Shown one piece after another: positions 55,604-62,778 of a stretch of 64,000 bases of DNA; the first letter of the stretch is position 1, and every line of letters starts with the position of its first letter. Under the pieces are notes generated by a model, which had not been told where the DNA came from, did no database searches, and worked only from the letters and a program-made list of their open reading frames with translations. Origin of the DNA: Vampirovibrio sp. (GTDB lineage Bacteria > Cyanobacteriota > Vampirovibrionia > Vampirovibrionales > Vampirovibrionaceae). The stretch lies in assembly GCA_021323475.1 (NCBI GenBank), contig JAJQJM010000001.1, positions 141 to 64,140 on the forward strand, given 5' to 3'. The translations under genes were made by a program, and so were the position numbers.

Positions 55604-55942
55604 ATGACTAAGACCGTGGCCAAGCTTTTGGCGTTGTATAACGTGCCGGAAGCCGACCGGGAACTGTTCGACAAGCAGTATTTTGAGACGCATGTGCCAC
55701 TGGCGCGCCGCATGCCTGGCTTACGGGGCATTGAAATCTGCAAGACACCCAAAAACCTGATGGGCGGGCAGAGTCCCTACTATATGATTGCCACGCTGGC
55801 CTTTGATGATATGGCTGCCCTGAAAGCCGCATTAGCCTCTCCCGAGGGGCAGGAAGCCGGCAATAACATTATGAGTTTCGCCTCCAACTACATCACTATG
55901 CTCTCTTCGGAAGTGGAAGTGGCGGAAGGCGTATTAGCATAG
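55604..55942 (+). CDS. EthD-family protein
   Basis: 112 aa; LYNVPEADRELFDKQYFETHVPL matches EthD/TIGR02118-like proteins. Confidence 0.6.
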   Translation: MTKTVAKLLALYNVPEADRELFDKQYFETHVPLARRMPGLRGIEICKTPKNLMGGQSPYYMIATLAFDDMAALKAALASPEGQEAGNNIMSFASNYITMLSSEVEVAEGVLA

Positions 55943-55958
55943 CAAGGTTAAGACCACC

Positions 55959-56825
55959 ATGACTCCACAATCCCCAACCAGTAAAACGCATCCCGGCATT
56001 CAGGCCCAAGCCCCAAACAGCTTCGGGTTTGAAATGATTCGTTACGAAAAATACAACGGACGAGCCAAAATCACGATCAACCGCCCGCAAGTGTATAACG
56101 CGTTCAATTTCCAGACCTTCAAGGAAATGACCCGCGCCGTTGAGGATGCCTCCTGGGATGACGAGATTGGGGTGCTGATTCTGACCGGCGCCGGAGACAA
56201 AGCCTTTTGCACCGGCGCGGATATGAAGGAGCAGAACGAGTATTTTGGCCAGCGCCCCAAAGACTATTGGAAATGGATGGGCGGGTTTATCGATCTGCAT
56301 GAAAAGCTGCGCAACTTTGGAAAACCCAGCATTGCCCGCCTGAACGGCATTGTGGTGGGCGGCGGCAACGAGCTGAACATGGCATGCGATCTGGCGATTG
56401 CGGCCGATGACATCTACATTCGCCAGGTGGGAACGGCGCATGGATCCGTCGCTGCTGCCGGGGCAACCCAATGGCTGCCGCTGATTGTCGGCGATCGTCG
56501 CGCACGGGAGATTTTGTTGTTATGCGAGGAAATTCCGGTGCAAAAAGCGCTGGAATGGGGCCTGGTAAATCAGGTGGTGCACCGCGCTCAACTGGATTCC
56601 ACCGTGGAAGCCATGGCCGATAAATTGCTGGCCAAATTACCGGAATGCGCCCGATATACCAAGCAACAGCTGAACTTCTGGCGGGATTTTTCCTGGGGCA
56701 TGACCATTGGGCATGCCAGGGATTGGCTATCCGTTCATGCCGGAAGCATTGAAGCCATAGAAGGCTCAAAGGCATTTGTAGAGAAGCGAAAGCCGGATTA
56801 CGCGGCCATCCGTCGAGGTTATTAA
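55959..56825 (+). CDS. MenB/BadI-like crotonase-superfamily enzyme (naphthoate-synthase-like CoA ring hydrolase/hydratase)
   Basis: RYEKYNGRAKITINRPQVYNAF…LTGAGDKAFCTGADM closely parallels the MenB/BadI pattern. Confidence 0.65.
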   Translation: MTPQSPTSKTHPGIQAQAPNSFGFEMIRYEKYNGRAKITINRPQVYNAFNFQTFKEMTRAVEDASWDDEIGVLILTGAGDKAFCTGADMKEQNEYFGQRPKDYWKWMGGFIDLHEKLRNFGKPSIARLNGIVVGGGNELNMACDLAIAADDIYIRQVGTAHGSVAAAGATQWLPLIVGDRRAREILLLCEEIPVQKALEWGLVNQVVHRAQLDSTVEAMADKLLAKLPECARYTKQQLNFWRDFSWGMTIGHARDWLSVHAGSIEAIEGSKAFVEKRKPDYAAIRRGY

Positions 56826-56931
56826 AGATACAAATGTTAAGCCATGGATCAAAATACACGCTATTACGAGTGATCCCGTAGTTTGTTTGTTGTATTTGAT
56901 CACTAGCAAAGGATTTTAAAAGGTTCGGGAA

Positions 56932-60718: not shown

Positions 60719-61487
60719 TGCGGATAATGTGCTGATTTTAGGCGATCCGGCTGACCCGATGGTATTGCAGTGGAAAAATTATTGCGAAACCGCCGGCATG
60801 TCCACCACGCTGTATTTAGATCCGGAGAATACCCCCGCCCCGGAAGATATCCCGTTTACGGTACTGCTAAACACCAATGTAGAAGTGCCGTTCTTCCATT
60901 TGCACCATTTGCCGGACAGCCTATATGAGGCGCTGGATGAGGAGTGCCTGTTCCTGAGTAATTGCCTGGCGGAAACGCCCACCAGCAGCGCGGCGGAAAT
61001 TGACAACGACCGCTGCTTAGTGGGATACAGCGCCATTGGCTTGTATGTGGGCAATCCGGTGGTGGAAATCGCATCCGCCGTGCAAACGGATGCCCGATTT
61101 CTGCACAAGGCGCACCGGTTTTTGGAACAACTTGGCTTACGAGCCATTGAGGTGCCCGAAACACCCGGCCTGGTGCTGGGACGTATTCTGGCGATGCTGG
61201 TAAATGAGGCGACTTCCGCATTAATGGAAGACGTCGCTAGCCCGGAAGATATTGATACGGCCATGAAGCTGGGCACCAATTACCCGTTCGGCCCCTTGGG
61301 CTGGGCGGATTTGGTGGGTCTGGACGTGATTCTGGCGACGCTGAACCACCTGGAAGACACCTACGGAGATGACCGCTATTGCGCCATGCCGTTGCTGCGC
61401 CAAAAAGTGGATGCCGGCAAGCTGGGCCGCAAAGCCGGGGAAGGGTTCTACTCGTATCATCCTGAGCATGCGCGGCGTAGCCTTTAA
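60708..61487 (+). CDS. stand-alone 3-hydroxyacyl-CoA dehydrogenase C-terminal-domain protein (the extra C-terminal domain of PaaH encoded as a separate ORF)
   Basis: The C-terminal ~110 aa (ETPGLVLGRILAMLVNEA…GPLGWADLVGLDV…GRKAGEGFYSY) match the 3HCDH C-domain, and there is no Rossmann motif. The start at ATG 60708 overlaps the upstream stop by 11 nt. Confidence 0.55.
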   Translation: MNLDADNVLILGDPADPMVLQWKNYCETAGMSTTLYLDPENTPAPEDIPFTVLLNTNVEVPFFHLHHLPDSLYEALDEECLFLSNCLAETPTSSAAEIDNDRCLVGYSAIGLYVGNPVVEIASAVQTDARFLHKAHRFLEQLGLRAIEVPETPGLVLGRILAMLVNEATSALMEDVASPEDIDTAMKLGTNYPFGPLGWADLVGLDVILATLNHLEDTYGDDRYCAMPLLRQKVDAGKLGRKAGEGFYSYHPEHARRSL

Positions 61488-61542
61488 GCCCGATTTTCGC
61501 TAGAATGGCTGGCAGATCCACTTGAGAGAGGGAATTTGCTCT

Positions 61543-62778
61543 ATGCCAGCCAAGGTGACCCGTAGCCCGGAAACGACTGCCGTGATTGTCGATGCCATTC
61601 GCACCCCGATTGGCCGTTATAATGGCATTTTAAAAGACATACGCCCGGATGACCTTTGCGCCATGACCATTGCGGAACTACTCAAGCGGAATCCGCAAAT
61701 TGGCCCAGCATACATTGAGGATGTATTGGTCGGCTGCGCCAACCAGGCCGGGGAAGATAACCGGAATGTGGCCCGGATGGCAGCGTTGCTTGCCCAGTTA
61801 CCCATCAGCATTGCGGGCGGCACCGTAAACCGGCTATGCGGCTCCGGGCTAATGGCGGTCAATCAGGCCGCGCAAGCCATTATGGCAGGTGAAGGCGAGA
61901 TTTATCTGGCCGGTGGGGTGGAAAGCATGACCCGCGCCCCGTTTGTTATGAGCAAGGCCACCGAGGCGTTTTCACGGCATACGGAAATTTACGATACGAC
62001 CATCGGTTGGCGCTTTACCAACTCCAGGCTGGCCGATATGTATTATCCTTACAGCATGGGCGAAACCGCCGAAAACGTGGCGGAGAAATACACTATTTCC
62101 CGCGAGGCTCAGGATGCCTATGCCCTGTCCAGCCAGCAGAAAACCGGTGCCGCCATGACCGCCGGTAAATTCAACGATGAAATTTTCCCACTGCATCTGA
62201 CGGATAAAAAAGGAAACACCACAATTTATCAGCAGGATGAGCACCCACGCCCCGATACCACACTGGAAAAACTGACCGCCTTGAAGCCCGCATTCCGCAA
62301 AAATGGCACCGTGACCGCTGGTAACAGTTCCGGCATTAACGACGGGGCAGGCATGTTACTGATCCTGTCCGAAAAGCGCGCCTTGGAATTGGGGTATCAG
62401 CCCTTGGCCAAAATCCTCTCAACCGCCGTGGCCGGTGTAGATCCGGCGATGATGGGCATGGGGCCGGTGCCGGCCTCGCAAAAAGCATTGCAACGCGCCG
62501 GGTTGACTGTTGATGATTTAGATCTGGTGGAGCTGAATGAAGCCTTTGCCGCCCAGGTGCTAGCCTGTGCAAGCGATTTGAAACTGGATATGGATACATT
62601 GAATGTGAATGGGGGCGGCATTGCCATCGGGCATCCGCTCGGCGCATCCGGCGCGCGTATTTTGATGGCGCTGGTGTATGAATTACGGCGACGATCGGAA
62701 GCCCGCTATGGTTTAGCCACCATGTGCATTGGCGTTGGGCAGGGTATTTCCACCATCGTGGAAAAGTGGGGCGCCTAG
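61543..62778 (+). CDS. paaJ: acetyl-CoA C-acyltransferase / 3-oxoadipyl-CoA thiolase (PaaJ-like)
   Basis: Thiolase motifs VNRLCGSGL (active-site Cys), NVNGGGIAIGHPLGASGARI and CIGVGQG. The start is set at MPAKVTRSPETTAVIVDAIRTPIGRY. Confidence 0.85.
   Translation: MPAKVTRSPETTAVIVDAIRTPIGRYNGILKDIRPDDLCAMTIAELLKRNPQIGPAYIEDVLVGCANQAGEDNRNVARMAALLAQLPISIAGGTVNRLCGSGLMAVNQAAQAIMAGEGEIYLAGGVESMTRAPFVMSKATEAFSRHTEIYDTTIGWRFTNSRLADMYYPYSMGETAENVAEKYTISREAQDAYALSSQQKTGAAMTAGKFNDEIFPLHLTDKKGNTTIYQQDEHPRPDTTLEKLTALKPAFRKNGTVTAGNSSGINDGAGMLLILSEKRALELGYQPLAKILSTAVAGVDPAMMGMGPVPASQKALQRAGLTVDDLDLVELNEAFAAQVLACASDLKLDMDTLNVNGGGIAIGHPLGASGARILMALVYELRRRSEARYGLATMCIGVGQGISTIVEKWGA

Follow-up and report, generated by a model that had tools for sequence, protein, structure and literature searches.

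The 64,000-nucleotide stretch of DNA analysed here (hereafter the window) stems from a Vampirovibrionales (Melainabacteria) bacterium, a non-photosynthetic relative of cyanobacteria, and probably contains, at positions 55604–62778, the core genes of a variant cluster for phenylacetate (paa) catabolism, as judged from the predicted gene products. Its central component is a PaaA-like di-iron protein of 264 residues, which is encoded without PaaB, PaaC, PaaD or PaaE. On the basis of sequence comparisons we favour, with reasonable but limited confidence, an interpretation of this protein as a phenylacetyl-CoA epoxidase that is independent of PaaBCDE and operates within a paa pathway that is standard in all other respects. 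This well-known pathway counts as completely elucidated, its usual epoxidase being a complex of five proteins. Hundreds of species, mostly uncultured and distributed over many phyla, show the reduced design as well, so that it probably constitutes an unstudied working variant.

The ORF (open reading frame) listing and profile searches assign to the plus strand between 55604 and 62778 an EthD protein, a MenB/BadI-like crotonase, an orphan, PaaF-like, PaaG-like and PaaA-like proteins, a PaaH split over two ORFs and a PaaJ-like thiolase. Gene order and identities given in the sequence-only reading, a preliminary note made from the letters of the window, were borne out by the ORF listing, Pfam, NCBIfam and tblastn; this includes the EthD-like protein and the PaaF, PaaG, PaaH and PaaJ homologs, which are 42–58.5% identical to their E. 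coli K-12 counterparts. Two ORF starts had to be amended. The second PaaH ORF likely begins with the ATG at 60708 and not at 60582, and the thiolase ORF, which opens with a TTG at 61522, likely starts with the ATG at 61543. Both positions are also the called starts on a 46-kb JGI metagenome contig, which encodes an identical PaaA-like protein and reaches past the window end. The features are as follows:

54537–55382, plus strand: FlK-type hotdog acyl-CoA thioesterase with a WapI-like C-terminal domain (PF22636, PF24716)
55383–55603, no strand: AT-rich intergenic region of 221 nt 5′ of the EthD gene, presumed promoter or regulatory region by position alone
55604–55942, plus strand: EthD-family protein, 112 residues (PF07110, TIGR02118)
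55959–56825, plus strand: MenB/BadI-subfamily crotonase, 288 residues (menB and badI as top NCBIfam matches, far under their cut-offs)
56932–57282, plus strand: orphan ORF, 116 residues (no Pfam or NCBIfam match)
57286–58077, plus strand: PaaF-like enoyl-CoA hydratase, 263 residues (45% identity to E. coli PaaF)
58131–58943, plus strand: PaaG-like 1,2-epoxyphenylacetyl-CoA isomerase, 270 residues (52% identity to E. coli PaaG)
59012–59806, plus strand: solo PaaA-like di-iron protein, 264 residues (PF05138)
59846–60718, plus strand: PaaH-like N-terminal half, 290 residues, with NAD-binding and first C-domain (PF02737, PF00725)
60708–61487, plus strand: PaaH-like C-terminal half, 259 residues (PF00725), overlapping the preceding gene by 11 nt in another frame
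61543–62778, plus strand: PaaJ/PcaF-like 3-oxoadipyl-CoA thiolase, 411 residues (58.5% identity to E. coli PaaJ)

The PaaA-like protein matches PF05138 with 136 bits (cut-off 28.5) and shares 28–30% identity with E. coli PaaA; its TIGR02156 score of 125.7 bits lies under the PaaA equivalog cut-off of 280. According to two reviews, from which the residue roles are taken, Glu42, Glu72 and His75 as well as Asp126, Glu155 and His158 are the presumed ligands of the two irons in E. coli PaaA (PMC7497051), and the phenyl ring is held in its orientation above the metal site by Phe108 (PMC4498308). The equivalent ligands Glu42, Glu72, His75, Asp142, Glu171 and His174 are all present and invariant in a cross-phylum alignment of 23 sequences (mean column identity 68%), so that a lack of di-iron ligands, named in the sequence-only reading as a possible refutation, is not seen. 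Phe124, the counterpart of Phe108, is likewise invariant in the family. An AlphaFold2 model (pLDDT 89.5) finds its best fold matches in the PaaA chains of 4ii4 and 3pwq, with TM scores of 0.80–0.82, followed by SSO1313, PaaC, aldehyde-deformylating oxygenase and BoxB. From alignment and model, the protein looks catalytically competent.

The side facing the reductase appears to be different. In PaaA, Lys68 forms a lysine bridge with Glu49, Glu72 and Asp126, for which a role in passing on electrons from PaaE has been proposed (PMC7497051). In the PaaA-like family Glu49 and Lys68 are replaced by Tyr49 and Ile68, both invariant, while Glu72 and Asp142 are retained. Moreover, the protein ends without the final ca. 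60 residues of PaaA, its C-terminal extension, and carries a 16-residue insertion at residues 103–119. An intact metal and substrate site, combined with an altered reductase-facing surface and the absence of partner genes, would be expected if the enzyme had become independent of PaaB, PaaC and PaaE.

A structural, regulatory or iron-handling ferritin-like protein residing in a beta-oxidation cluster would be a different explanation for these data, for which PaaC, a non-catalytic PF05138 member, provides an example; in addition, the genome paper on V. chlorellavorus speaks of beta-oxidation only and never of phenylacetate. PaaC, however, has lost four of the six iron ligands in the alignment, whereas all six are invariant across phyla in the PaaA-like family. 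Generic beta-oxidation is further argued against because no acyl-CoA dehydrogenase is encoded in the cluster, and the gene is consistently found beside one for a PaaG-type isomerase, an enzyme acting on an epoxide. We consider a role other than that of an oxygenase to be highly improbable.

Homology searches retrieved hundreds of proteins of 260–275 residues which share at least 59% identity across very different phyla. The closest named relatives belong to metagenome-assembled genomes of Melainabacteria/Vampirovibrionales, one of them labelled Vampirovibrio chlorellavorus. A search of 1.84 billion representative proteins and a rough neighbour-joining tree, a phylogenetic placement having been suggested earlier, put the family among many short PaaA-like sequences, apart from canonical PaaA of 300–330 residues. 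Public annotations call the family members “PaaA”, “PaaI” or “Phenylacetic acid catabolic protein”, and no NCBIfam model covers them. These comparisons support the assignment of the lone PaaA-like protein to a conserved family of its own. Two of the nearest outgroup representatives, P0122 and P0126, are tandem paralogs with 44% and 39% identity to the window protein and full sets of metal ligands; on an ENA contig they are encoded beside glycosyltransferase genes, for short PaaA-like proteins a different and apparently unrelated context.

Within the window, tblastn searches with 14 E. coli K-12 Paa proteins (E ≤ 1e-3) gave no match to PaaB, PaaC, PaaD, PaaE, PaaI, PaaK, PaaX or PaaY over the 64 kb, nor to the aldehyde dehydrogenase (ALDH) part of PaaZ, whose C-terminal hydratase domain lay outside the query. 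The PaaA homolog thus indeed stands alone, as had been noticed from the letters. By Pfam, the 39 other window ORFs comprise housekeeping functions only, e.g. MutY, a GlcDEF-like oxidase, haem synthesis, flagellar proteins and a restriction-modification methylase. A scan of one genome per species yielded 386 genomes holding a relative, and the neighbourhood counts given here and below refer to the best 80 loci, which comprise 1.25 Mb of flanking DNA and of which 56 extend 5 kb or more to either side of the gene. These loci derive from Vampirovibrionales, Sericytochromatia, Tanganyikabacteria, Rokubacteria/Methylomirabilota, Chloroflexia, Elusimicrobia, Acidobacteria, Verrucomicrobia and a few others. 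In none of them did tblastn detect PaaB, PaaD, PaaE or a second PaaA/PaaC paralog within ca. 10 kb, even at E = 10. PaaK, PaaX, PaaI, PaaG, PaaF, PaaH and PaaJ were picked up there with this set of E. coli queries. Eight further contexts with precomputed Pfam annotation contain no PaaB-, PaaD- or PaaE-type domains. All-versus-all clustering of the six-frame ORFs within 7 kb in the 80 loci revealed no reductase or ferredoxin family shared across phyla and yielded only crotonases, EthD, ALDH, thiolase, PaaK, FlK and PaaX, besides lineage-specific synteny and shadow ORFs. Since the family is conserved and partner-free in the 80 loci, the solo state is not an accident of the window edge, and of the two explanations considered in the sequence-only reading, parts encoded elsewhere or a different oxygenase composition, the latter is the better supported one.

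The former explanation would imply an ordinary lower-pathway operon in which the PaaA-like protein is the catalytic subunit of a conventional multi-subunit epoxidase, with PaaB, PaaC, PaaD, PaaE and PaaK encoded elsewhere. The tight positional linkage of canonical paaA, paaB and paaC (PMC13186573) and the absence of all four partners within ca. 10 kb in the 80 loci and the eight Pfam-annotated contexts speak against it, as do the lost lysine bridge and C-terminal extension, the TIGR02156 score well under the equivalog cut-off, and the Rieske ferredoxin gene that follows the PaaA-like gene in two sister loci (see below). On the other hand, paa genes can be dispersed, exemplified by the Chloroflexia, where the lower pathway lies apart from the unit of PaaK, EthD, PaaG and PaaA-like genes; the examined part of the source genome amounts to 64 kb; and E. 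coli PaaA needs PaaC for solubility (PMC4498308). On balance, a dispersed conventional epoxidase appears quite unlikely to us.

The evidence for phenylacetyl-CoA as substrate comes from the accompanying genes. The top NCBIfam matches of the lower-pathway proteins are paa/pca equivalogs with scores slightly under the cut-offs, and on this basis the lower pathway is predicted to be of paa type. The PaaF-like protein scores 360 bits with NF004517 and 327.7 bits with NF007239 (PaaF, cut-off 371) and retains both glutamates aligning with those of E. coli PaaF, which makes it a candidate for 2,3-dehydroadipyl-CoA hydration; oxepin-CoA hydrolysis is possibly an additional role. For the PaaG-like protein TIGR02280 is the top match by a wide margin (334.3 bits, equivalog cut-off 345.15). 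The specific substrate of PaaG is the ring epoxide. The PaaG-like gene lies immediately 5′ of the PaaA-like gene in about 48 of the 80 loci, and this adjacency argues that the PaaA-like protein produces this epoxide. The thiolase reaches 573.5 bits with NF006551 (cut-off 605) and 564.4 bits with TIGR02430 (cut-off 597).

PaaH deviates from the TIGR02279 norm of a single chain of ca. 500 residues with an NAD domain and a duplicated C-domain. The two ORFs of 290 and 259 residues match the model positions 5–286 and 357–494, and tblastn aligns them to residues 1–287 (48% identity) and 347–466 (42%) of E. coli PaaH. A frameshift artefact was considered and rejected: the split is present in 17 of the 18 Vampirovibrionales-type loci (the remaining one, L017, stops before the C-terminal half) and in three Chloroflexi loci. 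Because it recurs in this way while the Sericytochromatia possess a fused gene of ca. 400–530 codons, the split is a lineage trait and not a sequencing error.

Upstream functions of the paa pathway are found in other phyla. PaaK is encoded nearby in 22 of the 80 loci, some of them also containing PaaX, and the PaaK of Chloroflexia shares 53% identity with the E. coli protein (TIGR02155, 603 bits; cut-off 646). The gene orders are:

Chloroflexia: PaaX, PaaK, EthD, PaaG-like, PaaA-like
Rokubacteria: PaaK and PaaA-like, overlapping, with PaaI nearby in several loci
Elusimicrobia: ALDH, PaaF-like, PaaG-like, PaaA-like, HADH
Vampirovibrionales/Sericytochromatia: FlK thioesterase (not always present), EthD, MenB-like (not always present), PaaF-like, PaaG-like, PaaA-like, PaaH, thiolase, further genes, ALDH

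By gene context the PaaA-like family is linked to phenylacetate via PaaK and PaaX in Chloroflexia and via PaaK in Rokubacteria. An alicyclic pathway, the other variant suggested for the window, is not supported, given lower-pathway proteins that are 45–58% identical to E. coli PaaF, PaaG, PaaH and PaaJ, and PaaK and PaaX upstream in other phyla. In Rokubacteria/Methylomirabilota a conserved ORF of ca. 97 codons without Pfam match was also observed just 5′ of the PaaK/PaaA-like pair (8420–8713 in locus L007 and 17 of the fetched loci, mostly from this group, e.g. 8398–8670 in L075; 50–70% identity among loci).

The same neighbourhoods bear on the question whether a different CoA thioester, e.g. 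hydroxyphenylacetyl-CoA, indoleacetyl-CoA or one with an unrelated ring, might be oxygenated by the solo protein and degraded, with the MenB/BadI-like enzyme performing a substrate-specific ring cleavage or formation. The oxygenase is merely ca. 30% identical to PaaA, PaaK is absent near the cluster in all Vampirovibrionales loci, the neighbour in several phyla is a 2-oxoacid dehydrogenase complex of not established specificity, and the conserved MenB/BadI-subfamily enzyme with its novel active site has no step in the canonical pathway. Against these arguments stand the invariant phenyl-orienting phenylalanine, a PaaG-like protein 52% identical to E. coli PaaG and near the equivalog cut-off, a thiolase of the 3-oxoadipyl-CoA type, and the adjacency of the same family to bona fide PaaK-type ligases in Chloroflexia and Rokubacteria, plus PaaX in Chloroflexia. 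A substrate other than phenylacetyl-CoA is unlikely in our opinion, yet it deserves to be kept in mind.

The MenB-like crotonase had been suggested to be present in place of PaaZ. It shares 41% identity with E. coli MenB and scores 195.6 bits with TIGR01929 (menB, cut-off 342.7) and 192.8 bits with TIGR03210 (badI, cut-off 467.6). In MenB, Asp163, Tyr97 and Tyr258 are strictly conserved and Asp163 is catalytically essential (PMC3637252); the corresponding residues here are Ala165, Gln98 and Ala261. The invariant residues of the clade include Glu138, Asn137, Ser163, Trp104, Trp106, His252 and His260. Judged by profiles, and for MenB also by residues, the enzyme is neither MenB nor BadI. With NF046063, the model of the alternative oxepin-CoA hydrolase (cut-off 300), the MenB-like protein attains 121 bits, the PaaF-like protein 194.7 and the PaaG-like protein 205.2, so that none of the three crotonases qualifies and the MenB-like one scores lowest. 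Homologs of ca. 70% identity occupy the same EthD-adjacent position in one KSB1 cluster and one unclassified cluster, but gene maps of the 80 loci show the cluster without this gene in Elusimicrobia, Chloroflexia and several of the Vampirovibrionales loci. Because many sister clusters manage without this enzyme, a replacement of PaaZ is unsupported. From its distribution the MenB-like protein appears to be a conserved member of one cluster sub-type and is not demonstrably a PaaZ substitute.

Adjacent to it lies the orphan ORF of 116 codons, which has a homolog solely in one close relative, locus L010 (67% identity); in other lineages its slot between the MenB-like and PaaF-like genes is empty or filled by unrelated ORFs. 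In Sericytochromatia/Tanganyikabacteria a conserved protein of 256–259 residues without Pfam match is encoded in this slot (7482–8261 in locus L047; also in L054, L067 and L072).

A separate ALDH, e.g. PacL, together with a separately encoded hydratase is a known substitute for the fused PaaZ (PMC7497051). An ALDH of 504 residues, not noticed previously, is conserved beside the cluster in 28 of the 80 loci and on the source contig is encoded ca. 4 kb past the window end. Its top profile matches are generic (BADH, HpaE, StyD-like) and not the PaaZ/PaaN model. By analogy we propose that it may supply the dehydrogenase half of PaaZ; alternatively, it could be a phenylacetaldehyde dehydrogenase. 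The description of the cluster as partial has to be revised insofar as its incompleteness is partly ordinary, with the stand-alone ALDH just beyond the window. Between thiolase and ALDH, Vampirovibrionales loci also contain a gene for a conserved protein of 285 residues without family match (14952–15809 in locus L001, corresponding approximately to window positions 63963–64820; homologs in 8 loci), and in the lineage of the window the ALDH gene is preceded by a further insertion of MarR, DoxX and pirin genes.

EthD and the FlK-type thioesterase are further conserved companions. The EthD protein matches TIGR02118 with 85.6 bits (cut-off 30.5) and PF07110 with 39.2 bits (cut-off 22), and its nearest solved structure is BH0200 of Bacillus halodurans (PDB 2ftr, E 1.5e-19), which is presumably encoded in a paa cluster. 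We know of no established biochemical function for the EthD family. Its gene accompanies that of the solo oxygenase in 30 of the 80 loci and also in the KSB1 and unclassified loci; EthD occurs as well in a Firmicute paaABCD cluster, for which the published gene list contains no PaaE (PMC9416434). Based on this co-occurrence, EthD might act as an accessory or effector of the oxygenase. The 221-nt region 5′ of its gene (55383–55603) contains no consensus sigma-70 match, no Rfam family and only weak repeats, and a regulatory RNA or operator was rejected on these grounds.

The thioesterase gene 5′ of this region was missed by the earlier note, although it travels with the cluster in other phyla. 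The hotdog domain (residues 17–118) matches PF22636 with 113.9 bits, the C-terminal domain PF24716 with 48.2 bits; E values towards PDB 2cwz and towards FlK (3kv7) are 2.5e-18 and 1e-15. An FlK-type gene is situated 5′ of EthD in 12 Vampirovibrionales loci and beside EthD or the PaaG-like gene in one KSB1 locus, one unclassified locus (with Por-secretion-tail genes) and some Elusimicrobia loci. In analogy to PaaI and PaaY, it is a candidate for a safety-valve thioesterase. The fusion to the WapI-like “immunity protein” domain (PF24716) is seen in Vampirovibrionales, the KSB1 and unclassified versions being stand-alone proteins of 143 residues.

Hints on electron donor and substrate supply stem from two sister contigs, one of KSB1 and one unclassified with Por-secretion-tail genes, which were reached through homologs of the MenB-like crotonase and carry an extended cluster (L091 2577–17017; L093 2252–16659). 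This cluster begins with genes for E1alpha, E1beta, E2, E3 and lipoate-protein ligase, continues with FlK thioesterase, EthD, MenB-like, two crotonases and the PaaA-like protein (ca. 49% identity to the window protein), and ends with a small DUF1858-like protein, a Rieske ferredoxin, a GNAT acetyltransferase and ALDH. From its position the Rieske ferredoxin is a plausible dedicated electron donor in these lineages. Neither it nor the small DUF1858-like protein was found in the window, and none of the other fetched loci contains a Rieske gene. Some Elusimicrobia loci possess a short DUF1858-like ORF between HADH and thiolase (L052 11953–12108, L059 12071–12229, L068 11953–12111). Sericytochromatia and Elusimicrobia, too, have E1/E2 genes of a 2-oxoacid dehydrogenase complex in the vicinity of the solo-PaaA cluster. 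We infer that phenylpyruvate could be converted directly into phenylacetyl-CoA by such a complex, which would explain the clusters without PaaK.

From these data we derive a tentative scenario for the pathway. Phenylacetyl-CoA would be formed by enzymes encoded outside the window, corresponding to PaaK or the 2-oxoacid dehydrogenase complex of sister lineages. The PaaA-like protein, probably as a homo-oligomer, would then epoxidise the ring at C1–C2 without PaaB, PaaC, PaaD and PaaE; a donor other than PaaE would deliver the electrons, and EthD would be the conserved accessory. Subsequently, the PaaG-like isomerase would convert the epoxide into oxepin-CoA, whose ring might be opened and oxidised by a crotonase-type hydrolase and the downstream stand-alone ALDH. 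A beta-oxidation-like sequence catalysed by the PaaF-like hydratase, the PaaH in two pieces and the PaaJ-like thiolase would finally generate acetyl-CoA and succinyl-CoA, the FlK-type thioesterase encoded on the 5′ side serving as a CoA-releasing safety valve.

Several points weigh against this interpretation. Among solved structures the nearest relative is that of SSO1313 (PDB 4mud), an entry from structural genomics that is itself uncharacterised. The window encodes no reductase or ferredoxin, and to our knowledge no cofactor of EthD has been described. Because E. coli PaaA is insoluble without PaaC, as mentioned, self-sufficiency is not a given. PaaK is absent within 10 kb in every Vampirovibrionales locus fetched, and for this reason the substrate in this order is deduced from other phyla. 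Furthermore, PaaB, PaaC, PaaD, PaaE and PaaK could be encoded elsewhere in the source genome, of which the search covered 64 kb, and the screen for PaaB, PaaC, PaaD and PaaE relied on tblastn with E. coli queries, which can miss very divergent partners in the 72 loci without Pfam annotation.

A more comprehensive proposal can be formulated, which we regard as possible but somewhat less than evenly probable as a whole. The 260–275-residue family would be a self-sufficient homo-oligomeric epoxidase of the phenylacetyl-CoA ring, whose electron donor would depend on the lineage, with assistance by EthD in many cases and a Rieske ferredoxin in some. It would represent the standard form in Vampirovibrionales, Sericytochromatia, Rokubacteria, Chloroflexia, Elusimicrobia, KSB1 and others, and several lineages would be fed from phenylpyruvate by a dedicated 2-oxoacid dehydrogenase complex and not by PaaK. 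The MenB-like enzyme would add a new step, e.g. a retro-Claisen salvage of the dead-end 2-hydroxycyclohepta-1,4,6-triene-1-carboxyl-CoA with its seven-membered ring.

In comparison with known systems, the protein shares with PaaABC(D)E of E. coli K-12 and Pseudomonas sp. Y2 the fold, the six iron ligands, the phenyl-orienting phenylalanine and the pathway neighbours (PaaG, PaaF, PaaH and PaaJ here; PaaK, PaaX and PaaI in other phyla), and differs in the missing PaaB, PaaC, PaaD and PaaE, the sequence identity of 28–30%, the length reduced by ca. 60 residues and the changed lysine bridge. A precedent is provided by the benzoyl-CoA epoxidase BoxB, which needs no structural subunit (PMC4498308). 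As in BoxAB of Azoarcus evansii, a benzoyl-CoA 2,3-epoxidase, a di-iron epoxidase would act on an aromatic CoA thioester, and the donor of BoxB is separate and interacts transiently; BoxB is the best functional analogy for a solo PaaA. Unlike the latter, BoxB comprises ca. 470 residues and is only distantly related (E 5e-7; TM score normalised to the target ca. 0.4), and the box pathway uses BoxC and BoxD, whereas the window cluster contains PaaG, PaaF, PaaH and PaaJ and no BoxA-type reductase. Firmicute-type clusters such as that of Exiguobacterium sp. RIT 594 (PMC9416434) resemble the window cluster in EthD, separate ALDH and crotonases and in listing no PaaE, but they encode PaaA, PaaB, PaaC and PaaD in place of the PaaA-like protein alone. 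SSO1313 of Sulfolobus solfataricus is likewise a short stand-alone PaaA-like protein. Of all solved structures it gives the best match by sequence (E 3.6e-22, ca. 24% identity to the window protein), and its crystals contain four identical chains. With the PacL-type arrangement of Azoarcus evansii (PMC7497051) the cluster has in common the lack of PaaZ and a stand-alone ALDH, although the ALDH here is generic by profile and all three crotonases stay under the NF046063 cut-off. In the literature collection searched, there is no account of a PaaA working without PaaB, PaaC, PaaD and PaaE.

The DNA flanking the cluster deserves brief mention. Directly 5′ lies an operon for a GlcD/GlcE/GlcF-like FAD/Fe-S oxidase (50561–55382, including the FlK gene), in which the glcF-like stop overlaps the start of the thioesterase gene by 4 nt (54537–54540). 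The order MutY, GlcDEF, FlK, EthD is kept in a relative with 74% identity (L005) and in about ten Vampirovibrionales loci. Since GlcD scores 495 bits and thus falls under the glycolate-oxidase cut-off of 568, the enzyme could act on another 2-hydroxy acid and have a functional connection to the cluster. Farther upstream, the G+C content drops to 0.46–0.50 between 41469 and 50000, compared to ca. 0.54–0.56 in the adjoining DNA on both sides. This region surrounds an Eco57I/MmeI-type restriction-modification methylase (41469–43562, minus strand) and several ORFs without family and is possibly a horizontally acquired island. A flagellar block (FlgI, FlgK, flagellin-like) and a haem-synthesis block (HemE, HemN-like, ferrochelatase, protoporphyrinogen-oxidase-like) at 20940–29826 and 36548–41488 are consistent with the genome of a motile, respiring member of the Vampirovibrionales.

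If the proposed function holds true, the consequences would extend beyond a single cluster. A survey of 6,536 genomes from 2026 proposed the five-gene epoxidase, and in particular PaaA together with PaaC, as robust and universal genomic markers of the pathway and makes no mention of Chloroflexi, cyanobacterial relatives or EthD (PMC13186573). Genome surveys that rely on the pair PaaA and PaaC, or on the full PaaABCDE set, would miss or mis-score the aromatic-degradation capacity of large, mostly uncultured groups that are common in soil, groundwater and freshwater. The family would represent a minimal di-iron system for arene epoxidation, consisting of one polypeptide, possibly homodimeric, with a different electron entry, and could suggest a role for the enigmatic EthD family. 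For the Vampirovibrionales, genes hitherto read as “beta-oxidation” would instead indicate an aerobic catabolism of phenylalanine-derived phenylacetate, a capability that would fit their amino-acid-rich predatory diet.

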